Shown here: positions 27,010 to 45,411 of the stretch, one piece after another | Layout: each line of letters starts with the position of its first letter | Position numbering within the stretch: position 1 is the first letter of the stretch | DNA from: Macrostomum lignano | Lineage: Eukaryota | Length of the DNA: 64,000 nucleotides | Assembly (NCBI GenBank): GCA_002269645.1 | Contig: NIVC01003947.1 | Span: forward strand, 1-64,000 | Reading direction: 5' to 3' | Position numbers and translations under genes: made by a program | Notes under the pieces: generated by a model | Seen by the model: the letters and a program-made list of their open reading frames with translations, nothing else | Told to the model about the DNA's origin: nothing | The model's database searches: none

Positions 27010-27153
27010 TTCGAATATGGGAGTAGCTTTTACTGATGGATTTCGAATATGGGAGTAGCTTTTACTGATGGATTTCGAATATGGGAGTAGCTTTTACTGA
27101 TGGATTTCGGATATGGGAGTAGCTTTTACTGATGGATTTCGGATATGGGAGTA
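27010..27153. repeat. 32-bp tandem repeat (GAATATGGGAGTAGCTTTTACTGATGGATTTC), about 4.5 copies, abutting the Polinton left end
   Basis: Directly visible; the last copy is cut at GGAGTA exactly where the TIR begins. Confidence 0.95.
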
Positions 27154-28029
27154 AGTAGTAGTATGTTATAAGGGGCTGCGCCACACTTATCGCTCGGGCG
27201 CATTGCGCGCCAGCTCGCTGGATGACTCAGCCCCTTATAACATACTACTACTACTACCGGGAGGTCATAGTTGCAAGTGTGTGTGTGATAAATATAAAAA
27301 TATATAAATATACATATATCTGTGAGTGAGGGTGTTGAGGGTGAGGGCATGTGGGGGCATTGGCCTGTGGTATATTTCACAGAACACAGATTTTCCGGAA
27401 TTTTTATACTTTTTAAAAAGGGGGGTGCCCTCGCCCTCATGCCCTCACTCATTTTGAAAATCACTAAAAACAGGTGAAAAATGACTAAAAACAGGTGAAA
27501 ATGGTCTGAAAACAGCGATTTTTTGTAATTTTAAAAAATTTTGAAAAAGTGCAATTTTCACGATTCCAGCTCTAAAACCATGAGAAAGGTTGGATTCACG
27601 GGTCAATTTAATGCAATTTCAGGTATATACAATATGAAAGTGTCATCCAATTCAACGATAGTAATATATATATATATATATAAAATGGCCTTCAGTAAAC
27701 CATTATTTCTAGGAAATGCTTTAGATATTCAGTCAGCTATAACAAAACTGCCACTTGTCAACTCTGCAACAATGAAAAGCAGCACTCAACATTTCTATTG
27801 GCTTGCTGAAACATGAATAAATTCTGATGCAGATTTTGCACAATAGAATTACTTCTGAATTGCAAAATAAAATTCTCCTTCACCCTGTGGGACTGAATGT
27901 ATTCGAATTGTAGACAGCATTGTTATCACGATGACTAAGAATCATGGCTTCTTCCATATCTTCATCACCTCTGTCTTCTATTCTCTCTGACTCACTTAAA
28001 AACCCTCCAGCATCATGCAAAGAATTAAA
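27154..28029 (+). repeat. Left terminal inverted repeat of the Polinton
   Basis: Imperfect reverse complement of 44553-45411; homology ends at ...CAGCATCATGCAAAGAATTAAA. Confidence 0.95.
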
Positions 28030-28206
28030 ATACTCGCAGTAAAATACAATCTACCACTCATGGCACAGGCAGGAAGAGGCACAGGCTCTAAAGGCGACAG
28101 GCGCAAATGTAGCGAAAATTAAGAAGACAAAGTGTAATGCTAAAGTTGGATTATCTATAGAAATTTGCCCAAAAGAAAGCAAAAATGTTAAATTTTCTTA
28201 GAAAAA

Positions 28207-28550
28207 ATGGAAGCTAATAACCCAAATGTTCGAAATCCTCTGCCACAAAAATACTATGATTCTATTATAAATTTCTCTCAAATAAAAACACCCACTCGAA
28301 AGGCTCGACTAATTGAAGAAATTGATAAAGCTTACGATGAATATAAAGCAGAAATATTAAAACACAGCGATTGTAAATGCCCCCATATTTGTATTCATTC
28401 AGAGTATATCTTGCACATGTTGATAAATGGGCATTGATTTCGAGACAGCACATAAGGAATGATGAATTTTTCGTCATGCTTAAGTTGAACATTTTCAAAC
28501 TCCCCATAACCCTTGAGAAGTACATTGAAACTGATGAATTATATTGTTAA
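28207..28550 (+). pseudogene. Polinton hypothetical protein, probably frameshifted near 28430
   Basis: 76-aa ORF with AAAAAATG start and viral-like composition; an open +1/-1 frame continues (HVDKWALISRQHIRNDEFF...) to about 28550. Confidence 0.45.
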
Positions 28551-28566
28551 ATTTATTTTAAATAAA

Positions 28567-31023
28567 ATGGAAAGAAAAAATCAAAACGATTCAAGTTTCT
28601 CTCCTGTGATCGTACAGGATCCGCTTCAAAACCATGATGCCCCACCACCAAGATTGACAAATTTAAAACAAACAAAATCGTACGATAAACTAATTAATCT
28701 CTATGGAGAACTTAATTTTATATTCGGAGTTGCAGTATAACATGGAATAGTAAAACAAAGAAAAAAATACCATCAGGAATGCCAACCAAAGCAGATAGGA
28801 ATTCAACCTCCCACCATTTCGACCAGAGGTAGACAACATGATTTGGATAGATACTAGAAACTCAAATATAACCGTAATCGATATTGATAATGCTGACCTA
28901 TGCCCTGGTTGAATGAACTGTGTATGACTCATTGTGATTGGATTGTTCAGACAAACAAGGGACACCACTTTTACTTTAACAAGGTAGATGGATTGAAAGT
29001 AACGATTCAACAAAGTGTGGGTTTTGATATTCCAGCTTAGTATTTGCTCCACCAGGTTTCTATTATGTCGATGGTGAAATTAGGGAATACAAACGTATAA
29101 AGCCCGAAAGGTTAATAGACATGCCAGATGTAATTTTGATGAGATAAATAGATTAATTAAGCCACAGGATAAAAATGAAATCCAAGAACAAGATAAACAG
29201 GCACTAAAAAGCACCGTTCCATCACCCAGTTGTGAAGGAGTTTCAAAGTTGTTAAGTATAATACAACACAAAAACCAAGACTATGATTCTTGGTACAAGG
29301 TAGCACTTATACTCCGCGACATAGACAGTGGTGATGAAATGTACAAAGTATTCACTGATTGGTCAAAAGTAAATTATGATAAGTTCGATTCCGAATCATG
29401 TAAAAATGTGTGGAATAGCACCAGTACCAGCTCTGCTGATGCACAGGACAGACTTACTATCGGTACACTAAAGAAATGGGCTAGTGAAGAAAATTATTGT
29501 AAATATAAGGAATGGAAAAGCAAATATGATTACTATGGTAGGATTGAGTATCTTGATGATAATTTCACTGACGTTAACATAACCAACTTTGTTTATGAAT
29601 ATAAGAAGAATAATATAATTTACAATAGCGATGGTGTTTACTATTTTGATGATGATAAGTGGAGAGAACTAAGTAGTATAAATGACATATTTCTTAAAAT
29701 ATCACACCTTGTCAGCAGTGAGTTAAACCACCGAAAGACTAGACTCGAAATTGCAATTAAGAAGGCGGCTGATGATAAAGAGAAGTTAAAAGCACTTGAA
29801 AAGAAACTACAGAGTACAATGAAGAATATAAATTCAATACAAGGAGCCAACAAACTCAAACAGGTAACTACTTTGTTCAAAGAGAGGTTTACTAACAATG
29901 AAATTGAATTCGACATGAAATGGAATTTGCTAGGGTTTAACGATGGAGTATATGATCTCGCTACAGGTGAGTTTCGCGAGTATAGATATGACGATTACGT
30001 TACTAAATCGGTGGGATATAATTACTCGGATGTACTTAGAGTGAGTGATGACGACTATGACTTCATTGTTAATCTGCATAACCAAATTCATCCCGATCCA
30101 GAAAATAGAAAAGTTGGGAATCCGTTATAGCCACAGCTCTAATGGGTAAGAATGTTGAAAACTTTATAATGTTTGATGGCGCTGGTGGAAATGGCAAGGG
30201 GTTGAGGACAACCTACTTCTTAGAACTCTAGGATCTGATTATGCAGCACCACTGAGTCCTGATGTTTTGAATTCACCAATAAGAATAGACAGGCCACAAC
30301 CAGCCCTAGCACAAATTAATAAAAAGAGGTTGGTTATCAGTCAAGAAGTAAGTGGTGTCTTGAACAATGCATCAATAAAATTACTAACTGGCGGTGGGGT
30401 TATCCAAGCTAGAAATTTATATTCAAGCCAGTGTAATGTCGTTTTACACGCAACCCTAATAGTCGAATGCAACAACAAGCCTGACTTTAGACAAAATATT
30501 GGAGATGCAGAAAAAAGACGAATTATAAATATTAATTACCCATGTAAATATACAACAGATACCGACATCATTGATCCTGAGAAACACACTTACAAGGCCG
30601 ATCATATTTAAAAGTGAGGAGTTTAAGACTAAATATAAGTTTGCTGAGATGAAAAACCTACTAGAAATTTTCAAGCAAACAAAGGGTGAAATATATCGAT
30701 CGAAAAGCGTAATTGAAAACACTAATGAATTCATACAAAATTGTAATTGGTTTTCTCACTTCTTTGAAGAGAATTATGAATTTTTAGAAACTGAGGAAAA
30801 AACATTTATGCTTATTAGAGAAATTTACACTGCCGCAACAGAGAGTGAATACTATAGGACTCTAGCCCAACGTGAGAAACGTGAATTCCAACAACAATAC
30901 ATAACAGATTTCTTCAAGAATCACAAAGACTATTGTAAGTATTATAAGGATAGATATAGGCGTAGGATAGATGGTAAACAGCAAGAAACTAGAAATATTC
31001 TGTTTTACTGTGTAAAAAAATAA
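28567..31023 (+). pseudogene. Prim-Pol (AEP) + PriCT-2 + D5_N + SF3 helicase primase-helicase, multiply frameshifted
   Basis: ITVIDID (28868-28888), TNKGHHFYF (28951-28977) and VFAPPG in shifted frames; DYDSWYKVALIL...FTDWSKV.YDK (PriCT-2-like); LLGFNDGVYDL...YVTK (D5_N); Walker A GAGGNGKG (30178-30201); KRLVISQE; LIVECNNKP. Confidence 0.88.
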
Positions 31024-31044
31024 ACGAAGATGTTATCAATGAGA

Positions 31045-34000
31045 TTACATTGGCTGATGAGGAATAGATCTGATAGGATCCAAATAATATCTTTTATCAT
31101 CTAACGGACTCATTGTTTGTTTCATAATCTCACGAATATATATTTTATTTTTTTCAGATACAGTCATACTTACTCTACCTCTTTGAATATCTTTGTAATC
31201 TGTCAATAGTATGTTTTTAAATGTTTCAAACTTTATATTTGTACTGCCTTTATCAACTCCCTTGATCTTAACACACTCCCTGAAACTGTAGTGAAAGCAT
31301 ACTCCTTTGACCGCAGGAATACAGCTTCGGAAATTATTGAGCCATTCATTTCATCTTTCAACTTTCCAATGACTTTCTTGTTCGTCTCGGAGTATAGTGG
31401 ATGCTCTGTTGGATAATCCGATGTGTCTAAGTGTTCTTTAATTTTTTCAAGATCCTCATAAACATCCTGAGTAATCACTGAGAATATTAGCGAATCACAA
31501 TCAGAATAGTGCAATTGACAGCTGTTCCAATTCTTCTCAATAACATTGTAATAGCAATCGTACATTAGCATTTTTGCATAATCCAGAATAGCCATTCCTA
31601 AATAAATTGGCTTGTCACACGCAATTGTCTTTTTGTACATTTGGACACCAACTGCATCCTCACTAAACATAATGAAATCTTTGAAATTTGGTTTAGAAAA
31701 ATAACGCCTTGCAGTTTTTTCTTCAGCTACAAGATGAAAGTTCGACCTATTCTTTACATTTTCGATTGTTTTACCGTAGAATGAGTTGTTTAGTAGTTTC
31801 CACAGGTCTTTCTCAAATTTAGTTTTTGCTTCCATTCTCCGCCTGGTATTAAATTCGATGTATTTACTCAACCAGTTTGATTCTTTGAATGAAATAATTC
31901 TATGAACTCTCATAACTCGCATGCCCATCTTCTCATAAAACTCAAGTAGTCTGTGATGTAAAACATATTTCTCCTTGTTGTAAAATGTCAACATCAACTT
32001 GGATTGAACAAACTTTTTCTTTTCGACTTCGATATTGCTTCTGTATGTCAGATAAATCCTCAAATCTAGTTGTTCGTTTCTCAGGAGCCAGTGGATATTT
32101 ACTTGTAGCTTTCTTACATTCCTCTGTATATTCAAGGTCAACTTCAAGAAAACAACCCCTGCCATTAGGAATATTCTTGTGATACTCTAGATCATTTTCA
32201 AACTTGAAATCTCCCACAGGTAGATTTTTCATCATTGCTTCACCATATAAATTATTCTTGTCCAAGTATAGCATGTACGACGATTCAGAATTGCTGTCAT
32301 AATTTCTAAATACTTGTTATTCATTTTTTTATATCGATCTCCAAGAACTCCAGAGAAACCGCCGCGAATACCACTTTCTACCATGGATATCATTTCTTTA
32401 TCACCAAGTAATTCCAATTCCACATTAGTATATTTCAACCCACATGCCCACGATAATCCAGAAAGGGAAAAGCAATACGCAGGATCTATCTTGAAATATT
32501 TCAAAAATGTTGATCGAAACTTCTCAAAAGCATTGACAAATGAGTAAATCTTTCTAATTACTGCTGTTGTATCACTGGGTGGCAAATATTTTATTTCTTC
32601 TTCAGAGAGTGTAAATGGTGGTTCCAAAAACCTAGATCCATCTAAAAACACAACACCACTGGTATAATTCCCCAACTTAATTGCAACATGGTCTTCCGAT
32701 GTTTTAGAAATAAAATCCAATATATATTTTTTATTATTCATTCGTGTTAATGGAGCTATCAAATAGTTTAGATCTTTTCCAGATTCATTCAGAGAAACAA
32801 CGGTACTGTTTGATTCGCCTTGCCCTCCTTGGTATTACATGATTGACATGCTGCGCCGCGATATTTACCATTGTAGTGATTATGCTCTCGAATTTTTTTA
32901 CTATTACAAATGGCCTTGAGCAGAGAAAACATTGTTCTGCCGCTTTGTAATCAGTCTCTTCGACATCACTTAAACTTGGATGTTTATATCTATCCATTTC
33001 ATTTTTTATATGCTCAAACTTTTTGATTACGGTTTCAACGAATGATTCCACTGTAGTATTTGAAATAATATCTGATTTTATAATGTCCTCATAGTCGGAA
33101 CTAGTAAAAAGTGTCCATTGTGATAGCTCTAGTGATTTATCATCCATCGTTACATAATCTAATATTGCATAAAACACAAATGGTTTTCTTACACTCATGT
33201 GGTAGTTTTTAAACTTTAATATCCTCTTATCAATCTTTGGAACTTCAATTGACACTTTGAAGTCAGTACAGATTGCTTTATGATTATCCAGTGCATCCTG
33301 GGAGTATTTAACTTGAAGACACTTTCGACAAAGAAAAACCCTGTTGTAATTTTGGGACGTGAGGAATAAACACAAGTCTGTTATTAAACAATAATGATTT
33401 TTGACAAGTAGTAAATCAATAACATTGGGGTTGTCGTAATCTTCTGTCAGACGAATAGAATATATTGACTCTTTAGTATTTATATCCCTTAATCCAAACA
33501 CATTTATATGAAGACTGTTCAACTTTTCAATCTCAGAGATATCTCGAATGTCCACTGGAAATTTAACGTCTCCTAAGTTTATTTCATTTATATACTGTGT
33601 ATACTTACCAACTCTATATCTATGTTCCTTCACAGGATGGAGCTTTGCTAAAATAGACCAGAGAAAGCACCTATTGTCTGTAGTGTTCTTAACATTTACT
33701 AATGCGTTTGATTTAATTGGAATTGGAATATAAGTTCCTCCTTTCAACTGATTAATGCCAACAACTTTCAACACAATCTTTACTAACTTAACAAAATAAT
33801 ATCCCGATCCCCTTTCATTAAAACTATCCTTCCATCCATCGAATTCATCCAGAACATCCTGAATTGTACTTTCTATACTAGTTTCCACTTGGAGAAGATT
33901 TAACAAAGTTCGATACTTTGAATGATATTGGAACTCAATCCAACTGTCGGTAGTTCCTTTATAAAATTCTGCGACAAAGGAAATTCTGTATTTTATTGAA

Positions 34001-34107
34001 TCTCTAGCCATCAAATATTCGGAAAGAATTGGGGAGATTAAACCGCGAATTTCTTCAACGGAGTCGAGATCAAATTCATAAGAGGCCGCTGGTATTTTCC
34101 TTTCCAT
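31045..34107 (-). pseudogene. Protein-primed family B DNA polymerase (pPolB) with endonuclease VII-like insert, about 5 frameshifts
   Basis: Motifs YLDKNNLYG, KLLNNSFYGK, YSDCDS, KIKGV and C-terminal SPLDDKRY..P in shifted frames; N-terminal GGTYIPIP...DNRCFLWSIL typical of animal Maverick pPolB; CFLC...REHNHYNGKYRGAACQSCN at about 32835-32940. Confidence 0.95.
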
Positions 34108-34131
34108 TTTTAAGAAAAAAATTAAACAGAC

Positions 34132-34871
34132 TCAAGCATAGGGGGGTGCACTTGGAGCATTTGATTGAAGATTGAGTGTTGCCGAGTACTCTTTTGGCTT
34201 ATCAGCTAGACCCAATTTTTCTCTCAGATCTTTCTCCAGCAGTTCCTTTTTAATTTTTTCCTTCGCTGAATTACCAAGTCTACTCTCTTTGAGGATTTTA
34301 TCAACGACTTCCGAATGGTTAACTTCTTCAGGCGCAACACAGGCGTCTAACAATTGGTCTCTTTTCTCTCTGTATTCTGAATAAATTGCAGCAGCTGCTT
34401 GAACCTCTTCAAGAGTTAATCTATAATCATCAACTGCTTTTTGGGAGTAAATATACAATCTCTCTCTGTATTGATTTGCCAGATCTCTGAGAAAAATGTA
34501 TTTTGCCTTCTGCTTTTGGCAATGAATTTTCACAGTTGCAAACAACGACGTGGATTTTACAGCTTCAAAACCACTCATTGCCCCGATTACTACTCCAATA
34601 ACTAAGGGATTCAATGTCAGTATCGATGTTGCTATGCCAATTCCTGTAGCAGCCAAGAGACTTACATTTCCTGTCACAATGTTGATCCAATTTATCCTGC
34701 TACTTTGTCGTTTGTACTTTTTACCTTTTTGCTATAAATTGTAAGATCTTTAGTAATGCATTCAATACTGCCTTTGATTTCACCCTTTCTCTGATTGAAA
34801 TAGTCCCGCTCCCTCAAATCTGCTTCATGCAGCTCAACCACAGGATAGATGTGTTCATTTTTTTCATTCAT
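34132..34871 (-). pseudogene. Polinton membrane-associated protein (hydrophobic hairpin, C-terminal PSAPPY), one frameshift near 34715
   Basis: Start ATAAAAATG at 34871 (MNEKNEHIYP...), shift into KKYKRQSSRINWINIVTGNVSLLAATGIGIATSILTLNPLVIGVVIG; resembles the conserved hydrophobic protein of animal Mavericks (possibly the one called GasderminX; unverified). Confidence 0.65.
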
Positions 34872-34873
34872 TT

Positions 34874-36283
34874 TTATGTGGCGATTATGTCTAAAATCGG
34901 ATAAAGTTGAAAGCCTGAAACTATAAGAACAGTTGATCCTTCAGTGGTTGAATTAATATGCACTCTATAAACAGAGAATTTTTCGGTGGAAGCTACTTCG
35001 AAATACTTCATCACTCCAGGAACTAAACCAGCGTTTTCGGTAGAAAAAATATTCTTAAAGTCTCTCTTGTTATTGCTTCCTTTCAGAATAAAAATTTTTG
35101 GTTGATTTTTTATAATTTCACTACCCACTGCTTTGGTTCCTTTCAACCCGAATTTCCAAATTCGAATGGACTCGGGAAGTTGTACTTCAATGTAAGAATT
35201 GGGTTCATTCCTCGATGCCCATTCTGAATTAGATACTACATAACCCCAATTATCTGACGTTTCAAATGCTCCTGATGACGCTACATTGAAACCCCTTTCT
35301 CTATAGTTTTGACGTGTTGCTAGTGGGGGAATATATCCTGTATAAGATTTGAAACCTAGTCCCCGCCTTAGTCGCAGCTCCACTGATTCAAGTGCATTGT
35401 CTACGTATAGCTTTGGTACAGCTTGAAGTCTATCTATAGGCCACACTAAATCATTAACCACTGTTTGTCTCTCAAGTAATTCAACTTTTGTAAGCTTTAC
35501 GGAACCAGAAAAATTAAGAGAATAATGGAAATAATATGAGGGATTGGGTATTTTTTTCCTAAGATGTGCATTGCCTCTTCGTAGTTCAATGGGTGCACTT
35601 TGTTCAACAGGTGTCCAGTTTGTTCCATTTAGGCTCACACTAACAGACCAACCAGGCCACACCTCTCCTTCCAACTTTATCTCTACAACTTTCCTAGCTC
35701 TTTTCAGAAATTGAACTCGTATCCACTTGTCTGAGTCATCTACACTGCTCCATTCTGAAGCTGGGTTTGAATCTGCAACATGATATGCTGCTGAAGAGTT
35801 ATGAGAAGCGGTCACTTTCATGTCAGGATGGGAAGCGTTTGAAGTCAGTAATGAAAGAATATTGACTAATTTCGAACTCTCTGTACCTCCCGCAGTACCT
35901 TGCCTTTCTGCTAACAAAGTGTCAATCTCAGTTTTAGAATACATCTTAGTGTCAATCTCAGTTTTAGAATACATCTTAGTGTCAATTTCGGTTTTAGAAT
36001 ACATCTTAGTGTCAGTTTCGGTTTTTGTGTAGACATTGTTTACGCGCCCATGAGCATCGTCAATTAATTGTAGCATGGTGATATTCATTGCGTCACTATC
36101 TTCCTTTGAATAAGAGTCTGAAACATTTCTCTTTGCTAACAATAAATTATCTATTTCCTCTCTCTTATATCCTTCATTTTCATTGATGTATCGATCATCA
36201 GCTAACGCTATTGTTATTCCAGGTGCTATATCATTTGAATTTGACGAGTAACCAAATTGATTGGCAGTATTCTTGTAACTCAT
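34874..36283 (-). CDS. Putative fiber/receptor-binding protein: YSKTEIDTK repeats plus two discoidin (F5/8 type C)-like domains
   Basis: Intact 469-aa ORF; 4 repeats of (K)TE(I/T)DTKMYS; SEWSS..WIRVQF..VVEIKL..VSLNGTNWT and SEWAS..YIEVQLP..IWKFGL..LKGSNN..YRV patterns. Confidence 0.65.
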   Translation of the reverse strand: MSYKNTANQFGYSSNSNDIAPGITIALADDRYINENEGYKREEIDNLLLAKRNVSDSYSKEDSDAMNITMLQLIDDAHGRVNNVYTKTETDTKMYSKTEIDTKMYSKTEIDTKMYSKTEIDTLLAERQGTAGGTESSKLVNILSLLTSNASHPDMKVTASHNSSAAYHVADSNPASEWSSVDDSDKWIRVQFLKRARKVVEIKLEGEVWPGWSVSVSLNGTNWTPVEQSAPIELRRGNAHLRKKIPNPSYYFHYSLNFSGSVKLTKVELLERQTVVNDLVWPIDRLQAVPKLYVDNALESVELRLRRGLGFKSYTGYIPPLATRQNYRERGFNVASSGAFETSDNWGYVVSNSEWASRNEPNSYIEVQLPESIRIWKFGLKGTKAVGSEIIKNQPKIFILKGSNNKRDFKNIFSTENAGLVPGVMKYFEVASTEKFSVYRVHINSTTEGSTVLIVSGFQLYPILDIIAT

Positions 36284-36711
36284 TTTAATTGCTGCAAAAT
36301 TTCATTATAGCTATCTCCTTTATCGATTCGGTGTAAAAAGTACAGCGACATTTGACCACAAAATTTCTTATCAAAAGTTTGAATTTGTTCTTCCATGTCT
36401 CCACATATTCTATTCTTTGTGTGATTAAACTTTTCCATAATTTCCAGTGTGGGCGGTAGTGCATAGGAATCAAAAAAATAAACCTTATCAGGAGCTGAAA
36501 ATATAGCTGAATGATGTATACCCCGTTCTTTCGAAGTGTGAATATTTGTCATAAAGTAACCATACTGTGGTAAATCAACAATTTCATCTCTCATGGCATA
36601 GCGAAATGGTTTTAACTTGAGATATTTTGCCCAATTTATCAGATCAATATTAGTCGTAGTGTCAGTCCCAAACTTTTGTTTAAATGCATTCCATGTCTCA
36701 GCTTCGCTCAT
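36280..36711 (-). CDS. Adenain-like (C5) cysteine maturation protease
   Basis: GIHH (catalytic His region), YFFDSY, QIQ....FCG; start at TTAAAAATG 36711. Confidence 0.92.
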   Translation of the reverse strand: MSEAETWNAFKQKFGTDTTTNIDLINWAKYLKLKPFRYAMRDEIVDLPQYGYFMTNIHTSKERGIHHSAIFSAPDKVYFFDSYALPPTLEIMEKFNHTKNRICGDMEEQIQTFDKKFCGQMSLYFLHRIDKGDSYNEILQQLK

Positions 36712-36720
36712 TTTTAACAC

Positions 36721-37512
36721 TCATATTTGTCGTACGTGTAGATTTATAAATATTTCCTCGCCATCAAAGTCGTATAGAACACCAGACTCATCTTCGATGA
36801 CAAAGTCGAATGTGCTCAACATGTTTGTAGTTAGTGGTAGGTACACAGGATTTGCAGGCTCTTGAATAATTTTACTTCCCATTGGGACAGAGAACGATGG
36901 AATTGAAAGAAGTATTTGCTTATCAATTAAATGATTTCCATTGGCTGGATCAGTGATAAAACCCCCTTTGATATTGAGACAACGAACCATGATCGCACTT
37001 CTAGCTCCGTCTATCCGAGCTGGATTTGGAGCTCTCTCAAATGGTTTCAAATACACTTCCGAATTGAATCCCAACAGTCTTCTAAAGTTATTGGAATGTG
37101 CATCCCTGAAATCAACTTGATACTCTGTGGCTAACCGTAACTCAACTCTACGCGTGTCTAGGCTTGCACTGAAGACAATAGCTCCCTCTTTCCAATCATT
37201 TGCAGCTGTTAGCAATCTTTGAATCTCACTTGACAGACTTTTAACTTCCCAAGATCCTGCTTGAATCTTTATTTTCTTCCATGTTCTACCACTATCCCTC
37301 GAGTATCGCAACTCATTATTGCCTCCTTCAATATTGTTAATAGCATCAAAGACTGCAAACTTTTTTATACCAGCTTCGTATTCTCGATCTTCATACAAAT
37401 TTATAGGAGTGCCTAGAGTTTGTCGAAATGGGTTTTTAATTGAAAAGAAGTCAAATGTGCGTTGAAACTTTTTACTCAAGAGGATGTTGACTTTTTCTAT
37501 TTCTTTTTCCAT
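36721..37512 (-). CDS. Minor capsid protein (penton, single jelly-roll)
   Basis: Intact 263-aa ORF next to the protease; LLGF, I.VRC..I, EP.NPVYLP and I.DE.G..YDF.GE.I...LH patterns typical of Polinton minor capsid proteins. Confidence 0.85.
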   Translation of the reverse strand: MEKEIEKVNILLSKKFQRTFDFFSIKNPFRQTLGTPINLYEDREYEAGIKKFAVFDAINNIEGGNNELRYSRDSGRTWKKIKIQAGSWEVKSLSSEIQRLLTAANDWKEGAIVFSASLDTRRVELRLATEYQVDFRDAHSNNFRRLLGFNSEVYLKPFERAPNPARIDGARSAIMVRCLNIKGGFITDPANGNHLIDKQILLSIPSFSVPMGSKIIQEPANPVYLPLTTNMLSTFDFVIEDESGVLYDFDGEEIFINLHVRQI

Positions 37513-37514
37513 TT

Positions 37515-38244
37515 TTAAGCAAGTAATTCTGCTAGCTCTTTATCAACATTGTTATGTCCCTCTGCTTTTGCGGCTAGTAATGTCAACACTCTTTCACTGA
37601 GTCCAGATCCCGGTTTTACTCGATATCCTGGTGGATTATCTTTCAATATCCTTACTGCTTGCTTATAATTCCCACTTGATTTGGCCGCTGGATTTTTACA
37701 GTGTTCAATGAGGTTAACATAATCCTGCAATGTTTGCATCTTGAATTGCTTCAGCTCTTCACCATTTTCAGTTACTTTAGGCATTTTGAACAACTCTTCA
37801 AGATCTTCAGAAAATGGCATTCGAATTCGTTGACAATGATGTCTCGACCTTGTTCATGGAATTCAACATCTATTACAGATGATCCAAATATATATCCAGC
37901 ATCAGTTTTTTGAATCCGTATACTAGGCGCTGGTCTTTGAGTTATTGGAATCTTTCCAATTTCTTCAATTATTTTGTCAAATACTTCCAGGGTTCAAATC
38001 GTCCTTTTGGTGTACTTGATTGCGGAACTGGAACTTTTTGATTCTGAAGTTTATCAACAAGGTTGGCATTGACATCAATAAATTCATCGAGCTTTTCTGT
38101 GACAGGTTTTTGAGCTAATGGAGCCACTCTTGCATATAAACTCTCTTCTCCAATTTTCAAATAGCGTTGAGCATCATTTCTGGATTTGTACGTTTCTCGC
38201 TGCTTTGCTAAATTAATGAGTTCTCTTATATATTCATTAGTCAT
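37515..38244 (-). pseudogene. Conserved Polinton hypothetical protein, two frameshifts
   Basis: ORFs 37969-38244 and 37515-37820 are bridged by an open third frame (LEVFDKIIEEIGKIP...); C-terminal GSGLSERVLTLLAAKAEGHNN..E motif. Confidence 0.6.
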
Positions 38245-38246
38245 TT

Positions 38247-39009
38247 TTACAATGGGATTTTAGTTAGAACATCCTTATACAAATCTTGCTCATCCTCATC
38301 AGCTCTTGTATTTATATAGATATAGCCATACTTCTTTTTCCAAGCCTCTCTACATTTAGCCTTGATATAGCGTTTCGTTTCTATATTTCTAGCAATGTGA
38401 TTCAAGTTTGTATCTTTTTGTTTAAAGATTATGTAACATGTCGTATTCTCCCTGACAGTATTGCGATCTAGTTTGGTAAAATTTTGAGCTAGATAAAAAC
38501 CACAACAGTTTCCATGCCTGCCTCTCTGAAACAGACTTTCCTGAAATGTTTGATTAGCCTCTCCCAAAACATCGTCCAAATCACACATGTCTTTAGTCCA
38601 TTATGAAAAATTTCTTCATTTGGAGTATGGGAAAGAGTGACAGGAATTTTCTCTATTACTTCTGAATTTTCTGATGTGCTTTGCACTCGACCAGGGTTGG
38701 CTGCCTCTCGACAAATATGTCTAATATCTTCAGGAGATGCATCCTCACTCACCTGGTAGACATGATAGAGTGAGTTGATAAGAGAAGGTGGGAGACCATT
38801 TTCAAAGCCATATTTAGAAACTGATACTCTGGATCCATTTGAGATGCTCTGGGAACATATAAAACTAACTCATTAAAGTCAACTAGTTTTTCAGGACTTG
38901 TAAGAATATGGAATAGTAAATATGTTTTACCCGTATTTGTAGCGCCGATAATACAACATAAAAGAGGATTAGGGAAAATAGGATCATGCTGAAATTTTAC
39001 TTTGGGCAT
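38247..39009 (-). pseudogene. A32/FtsK-like genome packaging ATPase, two frameshifts
   Basis: Walker A IIGATNTGKT; LFQRGRH..C..FYLAQ and VREN...IIFKQ motifs spread over three ORFs. Confidence 0.9.
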
Positions 39010-39030
39010 TTAAAAAAAGAAAAAATGACC

Positions 39031-40395
39031 TTATTCGACGCGGGTCATTTGATATTCACTGGTAACTTTTATTACATTCTTTGTTTGTTCAAGAATTAGT
39101 GCAAAAGCAGTCAGCTCAACATTTGTTGACTTCTTGATAAATAATTGAATATTCACTCCACTCTTGACCAGAAACTCATCTTGAGCTGTTAGATCAAAGC
39201 AAAAGATTGGATAGATGGTTAGAAAGTCTTGTTTATTGAATGGAGGAGTTACACCGAAACGGCTGCAGATGTCTTCGTACATTTCATACGCTCTGTGAAT
39301 GTCTTGAGCTACTGGATCAATTTCAACATAATCATTCGGATACATCACCTGATTTAATCTGACTTGAAGCTGGGTTATTTTCACTGCATTTGCTCCAGTT
39401 TTGTAAGACACATACTTGTGATCATTAACTATATATGATGGGTTGTTTACGTCATATTTGAAAGCTACAAAGATTGCAAGTGGCATATTGGAGATGTTGG
39501 CTATGTTCCATGTATATGGACTTCCTTGAATGAGTTGTGGTGGAACCGTTACCCTCTCTGGAAATGATACTGTAATGTCCTTGTTGAGTGATTTTAGAAA
39601 AGCTGCTTCAGCACTGGGTGACAAAGTAATAGCAGGGATCCAAATCTCAAAGCTATTAATAGTTAACTTAGCTTCCGTCCCGGCAGCTCCAAAGAAAATT
39701 TCAGCATCGTTAGTCTTTCTTGTCCATGTGAATTTATATTTAATTCCTTTGCTAATCTTCTGCCAATCAAGGAACCCAATGAGAGGTGTTAATGATAGTT
39801 TGATTGTTCCACCTCTGTTTGGAGCATTAGTGACATTGTTATAATTTTCAAGCCTCCTAATGTATCCAGTATTCGAATCCTTCTTATTGAGTCTATTTTT
39901 CATAGCGATTGCTGCAGTTCTCACAGCTTCAGCATCTGCGTTGTTTGCTAGAGGTATATCAGAAACAGTCCCAGCATCTCCAGTGTCTGGAATCCATCCG
40001 TATGCTTCTCCAACTTCATTCATTAATTTTGAGTACATTACGGACTTTAAGATTGTGTCATACTCTCCAGGATCATTATAGACTTTCTTTGTTCCTCCAA
40101 TGTCAACTATGAGTTGAGAGAAAAGTCTCATAGGCCAATTATGTTCTAGAGTAATGTTCGTATTCAAGTCGGTGTTATCTCGTTGTGTTATTGAGTATTT
40201 TATACAACCGAATGCCTCTGACATGAGAATGTATGACTCTGTTGAATTGACTTCATGAACTATTTGACCTCCTGCAACATTGAGATTATTAGTGCTACCT
40301 GGAGTTGGAGAAATCTTAATATAGTCTTCTTTCTTTTTGAAAAAGCTAAAAGTTTTGTCCTCATATATGCTCAGTATATCCTTTTTGTTCTCCAT
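39031..40395 (-). CDS. Major capsid protein (double jelly-roll)
   Basis: Intact 454-aa beta-rich ORF between ATPase and core genes; NWPMRLFSQLIVDIGG, ITQLQVRLNQVMYP, YPIFCFDLT patterns. Confidence 0.88.
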   Translation of the reverse strand: MENKKDILSIYEDKTFSFFKKKEDYIKISPTPGSTNNLNVAGGQIVHEVNSTESYILMSEAFGCIKYSITQRDNTDLNTNITLEHNWPMRLFSQLIVDIGGTKKVYNDPGEYDTILKSVMYSKLMNEVGEAYGWIPDTGDAGTVSDIPLANNADAEAVRTAAIAMKNRLNKKDSNTGYIRRLENYNNVTNAPNRGGTIKLSLTPLIGFLDWQKISKGIKYKFTWTRKTNDAEIFFGAAGTEAKLTINSFEIWIPAITLSPSAEAAFLKSLNKDITVSFPERVTVPPQLIQGSPYTWNIANISNMPLAIFVAFKYDVNNPSYIVNDHKYVSYKTGANAVKITQLQVRLNQVMYPNDYVEIDPVAQDIHRAYEMYEDICSRFGVTPPFNKQDFLTIYPIFCFDLTAQDEFLVKSGVNIQLFIKKSTNVELTAFALILEQTKNVIKVTSEYQMTRVE

Positions 40396-40415
40396 TTTTA
40401 TAAGAGAAATTTCAA

Positions 40416-40868
40416 CTAAGCTTCATGAGGTCTAAGAATTATCCCATTACCCTGTTTCTCCTTTTCAACTTTAAAAGTCTTTAGCAGCCACTTGACTGCT
40501 TCGCTGGGTACTTGTTCGACTCTTTTAGCCGCATCAACTAATACTCCACTCCCTTGAGCCTTTTTCAACTCTTCTAGTTTTTGCCGTTCAATGCTTTCTA
40601 TTGTCTTATTATGTTTAGCATTGTTGGCTGTATTAACACTTTTTGCAATCATTGTACCAACTCCTGAGGCTGCTCCGATACCACCCAAAATTGCTGGTAG
40701 TAAGCCTAATAGAGGAATTATTCCACCTTCATGTTCTTTCTGTTTCTCTTGCAATTCTCGAATCTTCTCTTTAGAAAGATATTGCTTTTGCTTATTTACA
40801 GTAACATATCTTGGTTTTCCCTCTCGAACATATCGATTGAGTCTTGCTTCAGTGTTTTTCTCGCTCAT
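40416..40868 (-). CDS. Putative virion core/membrane-lytic protein with GG-IIPLL amphipathic segment
   Basis: Basic N-terminus, EGGIIPLLGLLPAILGGIGAASGVG, and QGSG/QGNG glycine motifs resembling protease sites. Confidence 0.65.
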   Translation of the reverse strand: MSEKNTEARLNRYVREGKPRYVTVNKQKQYLSKEKIRELQEKQKEHEGGIIPLLGLLPAILGGIGAASGVGTMIAKSVNTANNAKHNKTIESIERQKLEELKKAQGSGVLVDAAKRVEQVPSEAVKWLLKTFKVEKEKQGNGIILRPHEA

Positions 40869-40876
40869 TTTTAAGG

Positions 40877-41299
40877 TCAGAATTTCTTCAAACCATTGCC
40901 TTGTCTCAAAGACACTTGAGACTGTTCTGCTGTTCCTAGAGCCTTTTTAACAATATCTTGAATAGCCTTATTTGATTGAGAAGCTATCTGTTGCTCTTCT
41001 TCCATTCTTTTCTTTGCTTCTTTATCTCTACGTTTCTTTTTAATATATTCCAGTTCCTCACCTGCTTTAGACATGTCACTGTATGATTTCTTCGCATCGA
41101 ATATGTTCTTCGCTGTGGTAGCTGTTTTACCTATTGCATCAGCTCCACTCACAATTTTACTTCCATGATTTGATAAAAAGTTTGTGACACCACTGATCAT
41201 ATCACCAATTCCTTCACCCTCTTTATCAGCTAGTAGTTGTGAATCAGACGTTTCAATCTGACCTTTCGCCCGTTTGCAGTTTGTTCGATAGGCGCTCAT
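40877..41299 (-). CDS. Putative virion core protein with amphipathic helix
   Basis: True start probably CTAAAAATG at 41299 (MSAYRTNCKRAK); EGEGIGDMISGVTNFLSNHG amphipathic segment; basic coiled coil; RQGNGLKKF tail. Confidence 0.6.
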   Translation of the reverse strand: MSAYRTNCKRAKGQIETSDSQLLADKEGEGIGDMISGVTNFLSNHGSKIVSGADAIGKTATTAKNIFDAKKSYSDMSKAGEELEYIKKKRRDKEAKKRMEEEQQIASQSNKAIQDIVKKALGTAEQSQVSLRQGNGLKKF

Positions 41300-42527
41300 T
41301 TTTAGTTGAAAAATTTGCTGGTAGAAGCTGGGATTTGTAAAATGATCCAATGATTTCTTCTCCATTCTCATCCTCAATAATGTAGGTTATGGGATTGGAG
41401 TAAACTATTTTCTTTATCCTAAACACTTCTGAAATTTTCCAATATCCTCTTCGACCCTTTTCAAAGTGCTCCTTATATCTATAGATATGAACTTTGTCAC
41501 CTACTTTGAAGTTTGGTTTCTCATTTGAATACTCGAAAGTTGGCTTTGGTACTCGCTCAGGATGTTTAGATGCTTCTGAAGGAGTTATCAGAATCTCAGA
41601 ATGGATTGTGTTGTTGTATTTTTCAACAATAGCTGGCAATGTGTGGAGCCACTTCTGATTACCCTGTAGATCAAATTCAAACCAGAGTTTATTTGTGAGA
41701 GTACGATTGAACCTCTCAATCATTGCATTCTTGGACTCGCCATAAATTGAAAACATCTTGTTAATATATTCACCCCTTTCATCCTTCTTTCTAATGTTGT
41801 CTTTTGAAAACGAGTATAGCTTGTACATATGCTGATTATAAAACTCCTTGCCTTCATCTACACAAAGTCTCTCTGATCGTCTTCCTGATTCCTTAAATAC
41901 TTTTTGGAAAGCTTCTGCAACTTCCGCTCCCGTCTTTGTTTTCAAAGGAACTGCCCAGGCGTAACGTGTAAAACCATCTATGATAGTTAGAGCATATTTG
42001 TAACCTCTTTCGGGCGGTAGGATAATGATATCTGCATGCCAAATTGTGTCTTTTGCATAGTGAATCATTTTTCTAAATACTCTTGGCTTTCGATATTCTT
42101 TATGCAATTTTACTGCATCTTCATAGCTAAGACCCTTACCATAAATTGTTAGACAGTCTATACAATTGTTGGGGTTGTGAGTATGAATGCCTAATCCAAA
42201 CCGAACTTTAGCCTTGATAATACGCTTTACTAGATTTCGAATGAGTCTCTCTTTCACAGACAAGTCACTGGTTGGAATAGCATCTAAATCAGCTATCATT
42301 TTTTCATCAGCTATATGCTTCTTTGCTAGAGCTTCCTCTGGATTTGAAGAAGTGTTTTCAGCATCTCTATAGTTTTTGTCATGATAGTAAGCAGTCCAAT
42401 CGATTGGGTTAATTGGTAGACTGTCATACCGAGGCCGGTCTGTAATTGGATTGAGTCTCTTGTCTAAATTTGTACCGGGCAGTTGATCCTCAGTCTTTCG
42501 AAAGAGGCTGGACTTTATCTTAAGGCA
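41253..42527 (-). CDS. PLA2-like (parvovirus-type, PLA2X) domain fused in frame to an RVE (retroviral-type) integrase; start codon not resolved
   Basis: Frame is open from 42527: LPGTNLDKRL...PINPIDWTAYYHDKNY (HD at 42383-42378)...KHIADEKMIADL, continuing into WHADII, TIIDGFTRYAWAVPLKTK, VDEGKEF, MIERFNRTL (DDE triad). Confidence 0.9.
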   Translation of the reverse strand, partial: CLKIKSSLFRKTEDQLPGTNLDKRLNPITDRPRYDSLPINPIDWTAYYHDKNYRDAENTSSNPEEALAKKHIADEKMIADLDAIPTSDLSVKERLIRNLVKRIIKAKVRFGLGIHTHNPNNCIDCLTIYGKGLSYEDAVKLHKEYRKPRVFRKMIHYAKDTIWHADIIILPPERGYKYALTIIDGFTRYAWAVPLKTKTGAEVAEAFQKVFKESGRRSERLCVDEGKEFYNQHMYKLYSFSKDNIRKKDERGEYINKMFSIYGESKNAMIERFNRTLTNKLWFEFDLQGNQKWLHTLPAIVEKYNNTIHSEILITPSEASKHPERVPKPTFEYSNEKPNFKVGDKVHIYRYKEHFEKGRRGYWKISEVFRIKKIVYSNPITYIIEDENGEEIIGSFYKSQLLPANFSTKNERLSNKLQTGERSD

Positions 42528-42626
42528 TCATCAGGATTGACCAGATCCTTCAGCCCCACCTCCATAAAGTCTCTGAACCTTCTCCATATCCTTGTCAACT
42601 TTAATGGACGTACCATAGGTACTCGA

Positions 42627-43262
42627 TCAAAGATCGGACTTAGGAGCTTGGCTGCGGATTTCCACCATGTCCTCAAGCTTGTTACCGTTGGGAACAGGAA
42701 TTACCTGTGTTCCTTCAGAAGATTTCTCAGCTGAAGTGGTACTTGAGGCTATTGAAGGAGTTCCCGCAATTTGAAGGTGTCGCCATTCACTAAGCACTTG
42801 TTTAACCTTGGTTATAATGTTTGTGTATTTATCCCGATAAAGAAATTTCAATGCAAAATCGCCTGTTACAAGGGTGATTCCATTGTCTAGTAAAATATTC
42901 TTAGGTTCGTTTGCAGTTTTATTGATGCATACATAAAACAACTGGTAGGTGGGATTAGACTTTTTATAGTCTAATAGTTTCCGATAGTTACTTTCACGAC
43001 TTGAGGAATTGTCTGTTTTATCAGAAGATTTAAGCTCTAATGCAATCTTTCGCTCAACGTGAACCAGGTCAATCTTTTTTACCTTTTCGAATCCAAAATA
43101 TTTTTCTGCTAAAACTTCATATAGTCTACCTAGTCTCATTTGAATAACTTTAATCTTGTGTGAAATTATTAGCTCTTCTTGAAATAAATCGCAAAGAATT
43201 TGGTCATACCCCACCTTGTCGTCAATTGGTTTCAAGAGAATTTCTCGAATTTTTTGCTCCAT
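42627..43262 (-). CDS. Putative PD-(D/E)XK nuclease, type II restriction endonuclease-like (Eco47II/SinI-like pattern)
   Basis: Intact 211-aa ORF with GTAAAAATG start; IQMRLGRLYE...IDLVHVERKIALELKSSDKTDNSSS gives D-x10-ELK plus the TxNSSS tail recalled for that family. Confidence 0.6.
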   Translation of the reverse strand: MEQKIREILLKPIDDKVGYDQILCDLFQEELIISHKIKVIQMRLGRLYEVLAEKYFGFEKVKKIDLVHVERKIALELKSSDKTDNSSSRESNYRKLLDYKKSNPTYQLFYVCINKTANEPKNILLDNGITLVTGDFALKFLYRDKYTNIITKVKQVLSEWRHLQIAGTPSIASSTTSAEKSSEGTQVIPVPNGNKLEDMVEIRSQAPKSDL

Positions 43263-43769
43263 TTTTACTTTAAAAAATTTAACAAGTGCTTATCGATCGC
43301 CCTGAAGGGACGCGAGCTCTGCTCGATGACTAGCAAGGACATTGACTTTCCTCACTCAGGCCACAAGGTAACCTGCAAAAGAATACCCTGGAATATGAAA
43401 TTCTCCAGGATATTTTCCAGTAGAGAAGATGGGTGGCAGTTTTGTCATAGCTGACTGAATGTCTAATGCAGAACCAAGAAATAGTGGTATATTGAAGGCC
43501 ATTTTATAGAGATTTTTTTATTTCTTTATTTTCACTTGTAAAGTGTTTGTATACATTCCATTGAGTACTTAATAGACTGAATTTTAAGACAAGTTGAGAC
43601 AATAATCCAAAGCGACATGTTACACAAAACAGATCGCTGATAAAAGATCTTGGTATATTTTAAAAGAAACTTATAAGACGATGCATAACAATCCTTAGTC
43701 ACAGTCACAATGACAATCCTTAGTCACAGTCCTTACAGTCCTCCTTAGTCACAGTCACAGTGATAGTCC

Positions 43770-44186
43770 TTAGTCACTCATGTCTTGGTCTTGAGCAGCT
43801 TGGTCTTGAGCAGCTTGGTTTTGAGCAGCTTGGTCTTGAGCAGCTTGGTCTTGAGCAGCTTGGTTTTGAGCAGCTTGTTGTTGAGCATCCTCGTATGTCG
43901 GAGGTGCCTCTGGAACGTCTACATCTAGCGAGCGCTCGATTTCTAGTTGGCGTTGATTTTCTAAGATAGAACGATCCTTCGCAATGGTTTTTTTAACTAG
44001 CCTAAGCATCGCAATGTCGTTCTCAATTTTGTCGAAGTATACGCGATAATGCTCAAGGAATTGATTCTCATTTGTAGACGTGACGAAGCTAGTATTGGGG
44101 TATTGTGTGTGAATCAAACCTCTCAAATTGTTTCTCTCTTGTGTGTTCACAAGTATTCTAGCACGCCTAGTTGGATTTCCGGGCAT
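43770..44186 (-). CDS. Polinton hypothetical protein with coiled coil, PPTY motif and QAAQ(D/N) repeats
   Basis: 138-aa ORF; the 15-bp repeat at about 43790-43880 encodes QAAQD/N six times. Confidence 0.55.
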   Translation of the reverse strand: MPGNPTRRARILVNTQERNNLRGLIHTQYPNTSFVTSTNENQFLEHYRVYFDKIENDIAMLRLVKKTIAKDRSILENQRQLEIERSLDVDVPEAPPTYEDAQQQAAQNQAAQDQAAQDQAAQNQAAQDQAAQDQDMSD

Positions 44187-44552
44187 TCTGTTCGTTCGGA
44201 ATGAAAACTGATAATTTAAGCAGAGGACACTTGTTGCGGATACTCTATTTTGGGTATGCCCTTAAATGCTGTCTAAAATGTCTTATGCCAGCCGCTAATT
44301 GGTTGCCACTGCCCTGCCACTGCCCTGCCACTGCCCTGCCACTGCCTTGCCACTGCCCTGTGGCAGTGACAGATTTTTTCTCTCTAGAGTGAGTGAGTAG
44401 CAGTGTGTTATACGGGGCTGAGTCATCCAGCGGCAGCGAGCTGGCGCGCAATGCGCCCGAGCAATAAGTGTGGCATTGAAGTGGGTTGCAAATGCATGCT
44501 GTAGCAGCTTGGAGGGGAGTTGATGAATGGCTGTTCGCAGCTAATCTAAACC

Positions 44553-45411
44553 TTTAATTCTTTGCATGATGCTGGAGGGTTTTTGAGTGAGTCAGAGAGA
44601 ATAGAAGACAGAGGTGATGAAGATATGGAAGAAGCCATGATTCTTAGTCATCGTGATAACAATGCTGTCTACAATTCGAATACATTCAGTCCCACAGGGT
44701 GAAGGAGAATTTTTTTGCAATTCAGAAGTAATTCTATTGTGCAAAATCTGCATCAGAATTTATTCATGTTTCAGCAAGCCAATAGAAATGTTGAGTGCTG
44801 CTTTTCATTGTTGCAGAGTTGACAAGTGGTAGTTTTGTTATAGCTGACTGAATATCTAAAGCATTTCCTAGAAATATTGGTTTACTGAAGGCCATTTTAT
44901 ATATATATAATTTACTATCGTTGAATTGGATGACACTTTCATATTGTATATACCTGAAATTGCATTAAATTGACCCGAGGATCCAACTTTTCTCATGGTT
45001 TTAGAGCTGGAATCGTGAAAATTGCACTTTTTCAAAATTTTTGAAAATCACAAAAAATCGCTGTTTTCAGACCATTTTCACCTGTTTTTAGTCATTTTTC
45101 ACTTATTTTTAGTGATTTTCAAAATGAGTGAGGGCATGAGGGCGAGGGCACCCCCCCTTTTTAAAAGTATAAAAATTCCGGAAATTCTGTGTTCTGTGAA
45201 ATATTCCACAGGCCAATGCCCCCACATGCCCTCACCCTCAACACCCTCAGTCACAGATATATGTATTTTTATATTTATCACACACCCCACTTGAATCCAT
45301 GACCTCCTGGTAGTAGTAGTATGTTATAAGGGGCTGAGTCATCCAGCGAGCTGGCGCGCAATGCGCCCGAGCAATTAAGTGTGGCGCAGCCCCTTATAAC
45401 ATACTACTACT
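44553..45411 (-). repeat. Right terminal inverted repeat of the Polinton
   Basis: Reverse complement of 27154-28029 with scattered mismatches and indels; ends CATACTACTACT at 45411. Confidence 0.95.

Follow-up and report, generated by a model that had tools for sequence, protein, structure and literature searches.

This study concerns a Maverick/Polinton element in the genome of the flatworm Macrostomum lignano, located at positions 27154-45411 of a stretch of 64,000 nucleotides (contig NIVC01003947.1 of assembly GCA_002269645.1, positions 1 to 64,000, forward strand), which we call the window. Our principal finding is an 891-nt group I intron that interrupts, on the minus strand, a gene fusing phospholipase A2 (PLA2) to an rve integrase, and that carries within it the gene of a nuclease with a restriction-enzyme fold. 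Self-splicing together with homing of this intron is, in our judgement, quite probable. The fuller reading, to which we assign a probability of roughly 0.55, is that these Mavericks could make their entry lipase-integrase only if the intron spliced itself, in animal cells, out of a protein-coding transcript, that this intron would be fixed in one family of elements and still sweeping through another by means of a restriction-like homing nuclease, and that a single genome would hold both steps from a free-standing to an embedded nuclease, with a natural terminal-A variant beside them. What is new is this intron-nuclease system in an unexpected host; the claim of a preliminary description of the same DNA, that the element belongs to a possibly undescribed viral lineage, has mostly been anticipated. 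The contig of the window is labelled C3947 here and belongs to an assembly of 764 Mb; other copies and contigs are labelled C and loci L. Near-identical copies of the element are numerous elsewhere in this genome (family 1), where a distant second family is also present (family 2).

A group I intron in the PLA2-integrase gene

The PLA2-integrase gene is divided into two exons. Exon 1 (43371-43502, minus strand, 44 codons) ends inside the calcium-loop motif of PLA2, and exon 2 (41253-42479, minus strand) holds the rest of a parvovirus-type PLA2 with its His-Asp pair, followed by the rve domain, with an internal Met at 42299. The intron between them (42480-43370, minus strand) splits the calcium-loop motif between two codons, follows the U that closes exon 1, ends in G and brings an in-frame stop at its fifth codon. 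Its ribozyme core, from P3 to P9, matches the Rfam family RF00028 at 42489-42849 on the same strand with 82.6 bits (E 4.9e-20), where the gathering cut-off is 50 bits. Several copies lack ~0.9 kb surrounding the nuclease, and in them the PLA2-integrase is a single frame of 452 aa. Our Rfam search of the genome scored 28 candidates, all of them above the cut-off and all at the same site of the PLA2-integrase gene; copy counts are lower bounds, because 28 of 29,353 Rfam candidates were scored, and 40 of 212 in a further search. The intron is present in at least 28 copies and is cleanly absent at 22 natural intron-less junctions (20 + 2). Intron-bearing and intron-less alleles show a few base differences beside the insertion site, such as co-conversion would leave.

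The structure of the ribozyme was drawn by hand from 12 sequences with distinct cores (six from family 1, five from family 2 and the metagenome locus L116) and from the Rfam alignment. It comprises the P3-P7 pseudoknot with its guanosine-binding pair, P4-P6, P8 and P9, with covariation support from about three lineages: 22 of the 67 core pairs have changed on both sides, four pairs are compensated in P7, and 99.1% of the 764 cells are paired. None of 500 shuffles scored as high, a count that is not a probability, since the structure was drawn from the same sequences, of about three lineages; slid controls were 33-49% paired. P1 is 96.6% paired over 11 distinct 5' sequences, its U.G pair being invariant, and a terminal G is found in the window, in family 1 and in L116. 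A P5abc-type extension, as in IC introns, can be read from the fold. On the strength of the core covariation, the ribozyme fold is apparently under selection. Exon 1 is open in 23 of the 27 family-1 intron-bearing copies, and its ratio of non-synonymous to synonymous polymorphism (pN/pS) is 0.21-0.25. In one alignment (A2), optional inserts of 15-33 nt come and go in three ribozyme loops. A 30-nt loop insert shared by certain introns of family 1 and family 2 hints that the families have recombined.

The nuclease carried by the intron

The nuclease (42627-43262, minus strand, 211 aa) starts at nucleotide 109 of the intron, in a loop that a long helix closes: its open reading frame (ORF) lies between the two arms that pair as this helix, and the final ~50 codons extend through the ribozyme core. 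It is found inside all 28 family-1 introns and in L116, and the frame is unbroken in 15 of the 28. The predicted structure (predicted local distance difference test, pLDDT, 74, falling below 50 in the tail) best matches EcoO109I, with Z 9.7 and a root-mean-square deviation of 3.9 over 163 residues, the next best match reaching 6.1. Across 13 sequences the active-site residues follow the pattern Asp, Glu-x-Lys, with D65 nearly invariant and E76 and K78 invariant, as in a PD-(D/E)XK fold. The Pfam match to Eco47II is below the cut-off and the nuclease has no relative in PHROGs; its neighbours in the ESM Atlas are phage proteins and members of the Eco47II/EcoO109I families. The preliminary description had listed a restriction-like nuclease among the accessory genes of the element, and had allowed that such genes might prove to be unrelated nested insertions. 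The restriction-enzyme fold is borne out, and the gene is indeed nested: it is the cargo of a selfish group I intron, not a viral accessory gene. It resembles restriction enzymes of the Eco47II/EcoO109I type; a relation to I-Ssp6803I is conceivable.

The same intron occurs outside this genome. Metagenome contig L116 (JGI) carries it in a distant PLA2-integrase gene, again at this codon, with a 50% identical nuclease and an Rfam score of 80.6 bits, and 10 of 161 related proteins have the same ribozyme-derived tail. L116 and these ten database nucleases suggest that a wider family of such introns may exist in related elements.

A second Maverick family with an ORF-less intron

Family 2 consists of full Mavericks with an MCP (major capsid protein) of 490 aa, one copy having a 6-bp target duplication. 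Loose ends in the probable RNA runs described below led to 70 matches of the PLA2 exon of this family, and each of the 30 loci fetched (L119-L148) has an intron at the same codon. This intron is about 303 or 333 nt long (27 measured), has no ORF and ends in A in 30 of 30 loci. Rfam misses it; on a model built from these introns, whose training set included three of the 30 loci scored, it reaches 144-160 bits. The P7 helix is re-paired alongside the terminal A, and the free-energy z-score of one family-2 intron is only -2.0. A natural group I intron with a terminal A has reportedly been found in Coxiella. No intron-less junction for family 2 was found; exon 1 is open in 27 of 29 loci, and the His-Asp pair of PLA2 is kept.

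Free-standing nuclease genes lie directly upstream of family-2 exon 1. The nuclease is HNH/EndoVII-like in 23 of the 29 parsed loci, and in the other six it is 56-57% identical to the nuclease of the family-1 intron. In a nuclease tree built from 29 rows, which are part of the hits, intronic and free-standing nucleases cluster with a support of 91/86, which is below the starred threshold. By analogy with phages, the layout of family 2 is that of collaborative homing.

Proposed mechanism and tests of splicing

We propose that the ribozyme would fold on the transcript and that free guanosine would open the U.G site of P1, after which the exons would join at the terminal G and yield the same reading frame as the natural intron-less alleles. 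The nuclease would be made from unspliced or excised intron RNA and would cut alleles that lack the intron close to the insertion site; repair of the break from a copy that has the intron would then move it with a few flanking bases, which is homing. Family 2 would represent an earlier stage, in which a free-standing nuclease drives collaborative homing and which would give rise to the composite intron.

Splicing was looked for in the contigs of four runs that hold the stretch and that we guessed to be RNA, none being recorded as RNA; the region is covered in 29-30 of 30 bins. Two joints were rejected: X3, which skips exactly the predicted intron, has letters that match the intron-less genomic copies L117 and L118, and X1, which runs across the intron, is the common intron-less allele. 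The assembly contains no joined junction of the intron type. Unspliced family-2 junctions are present in the probable RNA runs as loose ends.

Several observations weigh against self-splicing and homing as we propose them. The intron-type spliced junction was not seen in the four probable RNA runs, which were aligned to the window, so that a spliced form of family 2 would not align. The integrase could be made without splicing from an in-frame Met at 42299, which family 2 and L116 have as well. Family-2 introns have A, not G, at their end and escape Rfam, and the covariation comes from about three lineages only, on a structure drawn by hand. P1 is invariant and hence offers no covariation, and P2 fits poorly, at 69-73% paired. 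The pN/pS of exon 1 is equally low against the intron-less allele (0.20), in pooled comparisons that are not independent, so the constraint may predate the gain of the intron. Finally, the tree does not fix the direction in which the nuclease moved.

The element, its copies and its flanks

The element is a new member of an already known kind, the Mavericks/Polintons: its family has long terminal inverted repeats (TIRs) of the form AG...CT, a DNA polymerase B that is primed by a protein (pPolB), an rve integrase, an A32 ATPase and a double jelly-roll MCP. The left TIR (27154-28029) and the right TIR (44553-45411) are about 876 bp long, 95% identical and end in AGTAGT...ACTACT, which confirms the boundaries first proposed as exact. 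An imperfect palindrome of ~100 bp lies at either end of the window element (27154-27252, the outer 99 bases of the left TIR, and 45310-45411); the end palindrome of family 2 is ~270 bp (C1776, 394283-394557). The microRNA matches returned by a scan for RNA families lie far under the cut-offs and arise from the terminal palindrome. A partial copy of the palindrome inside the right end (44396-44474) suggests the captured end of a related element. The inner parts of the TIRs (27685-27754 and 44826-44897) hold a copy of the first ~23 codons of PLA2-integrase exon 1, and in most copies exon 1 starts within the terminal repeat.

Searching the assembly with the MCP gave 99 matches, among which 17 cover the full length with 99-100% identity, and family 2 stands at 25-28%; in 9 matches, the window included, the MCP is identical. 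TIRs are present in all nine full copies, and a 6-bp target-site duplication in five of the nine full-copy rows (4 distinct sites), in addition to the satellite site described below. The window copy itself has no target-site duplication. Its left flank is that of an insertion in a 32-bp satellite whose partner end, with the duplicated site, is on C2507, and its right flank is that of C2232, with the duplicated site in a Gypsy element. The window copy differs from C2232 by 101 substitutions, of which 76 fall left of 32 kb, and by 43 indels, of which 36 concern a single base. Because the two flanks belong to different insertions and the target duplication is absent, we infer that the window copy joins two insertions, through assembly error or recombination; a flank exchange of like kind is seen between C67 and C5112. 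The preliminary description had called the genome complete, which does not hold: its ends come from different insertions, it lacks a target-site duplication, and five genes are in pieces (those of the helicase, pPolB, a 246-aa protein with two membrane helices, an unknown protein of 243 aa and the ATPase). Sequencing errors may account for many of these breaks; of the nine full-length copies that we mapped, none has all its core frames unbroken.

The 32-bp satellite (window 27010-27153; also C164, C1836, C434 and C2507) is an insertion site and forms long arrays elsewhere. From 45412 onward, decayed remnants of a Gypsy reverse transcriptase, RNase H and integrase lie beside the right end. Other parts of the window (7696-8616, 15435-17805, 21732-23213 and 48702-50059) contain long tandem arrays of 16-21 bp, along with one pair of inverted 14-bp repeat blocks ~0.8 kb apart, which has the look of a foldback element.

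Gene content

The genes of the element abut one another. On the plus strand, a small unknown ORF (28207-28437, shortened in the window and 113-114 aa in sister copies) is followed by a fragmented Prim-Pol/PriCT-2/D5_N/SF3 primase-helicase (28534-31023), which forms a single frame of 832-833 aa in three sister copies. The remaining genes are on the minus strand: pPolB with an endonuclease VII-like domain, in five pieces (31048-34107); a protein with two membrane helices that ends in PSAPPY, with a weak SLATT match (34132-34871; broken, 246 aa in sister copies); a fibre candidate of 469 aa with 10-aa repeats and an F5/8 (discoidin) domain (34874-36283); an adenain-like cysteine protease of 143 aa, whose His-Asp-Cys order was read off the sequence (36280-36711); a likely minor capsid protein (mCP) of 263 aa, 33% identical to the family-2 gene in the same position (36721-37512); a broken unknown gene (37515-38244, 243 aa in sister copies); a broken A32-like packaging ATPase (38247-39009, 257 aa in sister copies); the double jelly-roll MCP (39031-40395); a protein X-like ORF of 150 aa with a hydrophobic helix, whose family-2 relative matches Adeno_PX below the cut-off (40416-40868); and an unknown ORF of 164 aa (40877-41371). 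Beyond exon 1 lies an optional ORF of 138 aa with PPTY and Q-rich repeats (43770-44186), present at this end only in the window and in copies of the C2232/C2507 type.

Pfam matches over the cut-off were obtained in the window for D5_N, PriCT_2, F5/8 discoidin, the double jelly-roll MCP and rve, and in unbroken sister copies for the Pox_A32 ATPase, Phospholip_A2_4 and Endonuclease_7 in pPolB. The polymerase was recognised by its motifs and its EndoVII domain, with no match to DNA_pol_B_2. The Prim-Pol part scored 17.2 bits in Pfam against a cut-off of 22.8; a PHROG primase profile spans residues 101-669 of the 832-aa helicase, and the Prim-Pol region has no relatives among solved structures or among the 21 helicase hits presented in the next section. 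For mCP and protease there is no Pfam or PHROG match, and their assignments rest on position and motif; the predicted structure of mCP has a pLDDT of 35, so that its fold is unsupported by the model. The primase-helicase, the discoidin fibre candidate and the PLA2-integrase fusion named in the preliminary description are thereby upheld, the last by the PLA2 match in sister copies and by the 452-aa frame of intron-less alleles. Its compact set of core genes is also present and abutting, with the reservation that mCP and protease are assigned without a profile match. Its late-domain-like motifs are borne out for PSAP (1 observed, 0.03 expected from shuffles) and PPxY (2 observed, 0.33 expected), and YPxL is at chance level in the same comparison. 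PSAP is kept in 11-12 of the 14 listed family-1 frames (11 strictly flagged) and is absent from two family-2 frames; PPTY is retained in a 39% identical relative. PPxY motifs are used by adenovirus entry proteins.

The MCP has 12 protein hits, of which one is identical and named as Macrostomum lignano and the other 11 are 33-63% identical. The preliminary description had also proposed searches of virome and RNA data: in IMG/VR the MCP, nuclease and PLA2-integrase are all without a relative, and the outcome for RNA runs, a covered region with no spliced junction, is given above. The PLA2-integrase fusion is common to family 1, family 2 and L116, and we found no description of it in the portions of the Maverick literature available. 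The PLA2X arrangement, a PLA2 with a C-terminal protein X domain, is not what we find, as PLA2 is here fused to rve, and no recombinase match was present among 28 frames scanned with Pfam. PLA2 points to a virion module of group 2/Alpha type, and the lack of pfam03175 would point to a Beta-type polymerase, both pointers being judged by gene-content definitions.

The replication module

The primase-helicase is an integral gene of the element, because it lies within element sequence in all 19 examined stretches holding it (out of 84 matches). Three layouts were identified. The order of the window is shared by six copies, itself included, and by three more that are truncated. In ten copies (C67, C4094, C2696, C4788, C5112, C4019, C1090, C4665, C2902 and C2995) the helicase-pPolB arm, corresponding to 28099-34894, is inverted relative to the virion genes; two of them are seen only on that arm, and where both arms are visible 1.4-1.7 kb of other sequence separates them. 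In the third layout (C2071, and C3459 twice) a virion module of 98% nucleotide identity is joined to a different pPolB of 1275 aa, with no helicase and with different terminal repeats, 71-74% identical. This arrangement is apparently a recent module swap, and because the virion module also occurs without the helicase, the gene set appears to be a combination of modules rather than a fixed trait of a lineage. The primase-helicase would then be a swappable part of the replication module.

The 21 helicase hits, at 25-38% identity, are environmental and giant-virus sequences, with one named as a Hyperionvirus primase. The nearest helicases in IMG/VR are on 19 loci, 8 of which bear a giant-virus genome label; none of the 19 matches the pPolB, MCP, integrase or protease of the element, and one has a weak ATPase match. 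It has been reported that group 2 animal Mavericks often have PrimPol-SF3 helicases and phospholipases and that their replication modules switch (10.64898/2026.06.19.733378, a 2026 preprint). D5-like primase-helicases were noted in some polintoviruses in 2015 (PMC4405056), helicases are patchy in coral elements (PMC11131425), exchange of polymerases between elements has been shown in nematodes (PMC10748475), and PLA2 and lectin genes are described for adintoviruses (PMC8502044).

Alternative explanations

The missing spliced junction would be expected if the intron were real, and spread or once spread as DNA, and yet spliced poorly or never in this host, the integrase being made from Met 42299 and the PLA2 lost or borrowed from intron-less copies. 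The appearance of unspliced family-2 junctions in the same runs, an internal Met common to both families and L116, the lack of a terminal G in family 2 and the 22 intron-less alleles still found in family 1 all agree with such a history, which we nevertheless regard as fairly unlikely: family 2 has kept exon 1 and the His-Asp pair of PLA2 with no intron-less allele found, and the core helices have been kept by compensatory change, which would not be expected of a dead ribozyme. We consider it very improbable that host RNA processing handles the insert, by the spliceosome or by spliced-leader trans-splicing that gives separate nuclease and integrase messages, with the ribozyme as a bystander. 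Trans-splicing does occur in flatworms, and there is a GT two bases upstream of the 5' boundary; however, the 3' partner of this GT that keeps the frame ends in AC, not AG, the boundaries in family 1 and L116 obey group I rules, and the covariation shows that the ribozyme fold is under selection.

Two further explanations concern the host and the lineage. The assembly holds three MyoD-type Basic domains, which we take to be an animal marker, and copies of the elements lie on dozens of contigs of up to 1.1 Mb, flanked by target duplications and host repeats; the identical MCP was named by NCBI from Macrostomum lignano, and all 20 runs holding the stretch, across 8 studies, share one organism label. 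An origin from a co-assembled protist or food organism is therefore extremely improbable, even though group I introns are known in PLVs (polinton-like viruses) of cryptophytes, a rhizarian and a green alga (PMC12220804); our assignment of the host rests on flanks, duplications, repeats and labels. The preliminary description had favoured an undescribed, virion-forming lineage, defined by its accessory set, that bridges animal Mavericks and the PLVs of protists. What speaks for this claim is the integral helicase, akin to giant-virus and environmental primases, together with the distance of the element's relatives: the MCP, identical in 9 matches, has none above 63% identity outside the host and none in IMG/VR, and the combination of pPolB with a primase-helicase has been called uncommon (PMC3671162). 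The accessory set, however, is a poor mark of a bridge, as PrimPol-SF3 helicases, phospholipases and module switching are already known for group 2 Mavericks (10.64898/2026.06.19.733378), the same virion module occurs without the helicase, the nuclease is intron cargo, and none of the 19 viral loci with the nearest helicases matches the element's pPolB, MCP, integrase or protease. The lineage claim is thus weak, largely anticipated in print, and we consider it improbable.

Relation to known systems and significance

Self-splicing and homing of a nested intron, the reading that we prefer, has its closest viral parallel in the introns of protist PLVs (Rhodomonas lacustris cluster C3, Paulinella micropora and Desmodesmus armatus; PMC12220804), where RF00028 also lies in a gene of a small integrating double-stranded DNA virus. 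Those introns, as given there, are of ~300-380 nt, in a short ORF upstream of the MCP and with no intron nuclease annotated, whereas here the host is a bilaterian, the gene is that of the PLA2-integrase, the nuclease is in the intron and the intron is present or absent among copies. Mobile introns of phages (PMC3984707) likewise have a nuclease ORF in a peripheral loop that reads into the core, with flank differences like those of co-conversion, and in phage collaborative homing an ORF-less intron beside a free-standing nuclease is the precursor of a composite intron. The same work recognises PD-(D/E)XK as a homing endonuclease family and presents collaborative homing, described in phages and bacteria, as a proposed way for mobile introns to arise (PMC3984707); in our case a single animal genome has both arrangements, in elements integrated into nuclear DNA.

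With group 2 Mavericks and adintoviruses (10.64898/2026.06.19.733378; PMC8502044; PMC10748475) the element shares TIRs, the 6-bp duplication, pPolB, rve, ATPase, protease, capsid genes and PLA2, and also a variable replication module with a PrimPol-SF3 helicase and exchange of polymerases between elements. Unlike them, it has pPolB and primase-helicase together, not one replacing the other, and its PLA2 is on the integrase rather than on protein X; the available parts of these works mention no group I intron. Protist PLVs have a helicase and a tyrosine recombinase in place of pPolB and rve, both of which are present here.

The introns of ribosomal DNA in protists and fungi and those of mitochondria in sponges, corals and placozoans belong to the same ribozyme class, and the animal ones are mostly mitochondrial IB4 introns of non-bilaterians (PMC3679873, PMC11835236, PMC9240083); ours is in a protein-coding gene in bilaterian chromosomal DNA. 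It has been said that nuclear group I introns occur in microbial rRNA genes only (PMC3679873), a 2025 survey that covered 42,459 introns in NCBI nt lists placozoans, corals and sponges as the only animals, with mostly mitochondrial introns (PMC11835236), and for bilaterian mitochondria group II introns and introns of unknown type are listed (PMC9240083). The parts available of three further works (PMC11296320, PMC11071308, PMC10120064) show no group I intron in Mavericks. In the literature searched, which left subscription journals, Repbase and preprint supplements outside, we found no animal Maverick, and no nuclear DNA of an animal, reported to carry such an intron.

A loose scan of IMG/VR for the 5' motif returned 120 loci, of which 3 contained core-like words and 2 genuine group I introns. 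These two (L166, at 1215-4031, and L224) carry a gene for an RNA polymerase subunit of giant-virus type, which contains three group I introns and apparently an intein. One of their introns has a very similar P1-P2 start after the same exon end, and an HNH-like ORF next to it shares 34% identity over 68 aa with the free-standing nuclease of family 2; nucleotide homology to the window intron extends no further than 21 bases. The likeness in P1 may follow from a similar target, and we treat it as a lead only.

These results bear on annotation, on RNA processing in animals and on the origin of mobile introns. Mavericks are annotated as intron-free, and genes of this kind are therefore mis-called, as with the 'accessory nuclease' here. 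With about a hundred chromosomal copies in a flatworm kept in the laboratory, group I splicing from mRNA in an animal nucleus becomes directly testable, as does homing among dispersed copies of a transposon. The two families together offer a natural test of the origin of mobile introns from an ORF-less intron and a neighbouring nuclease, which has hitherto been argued from phages.

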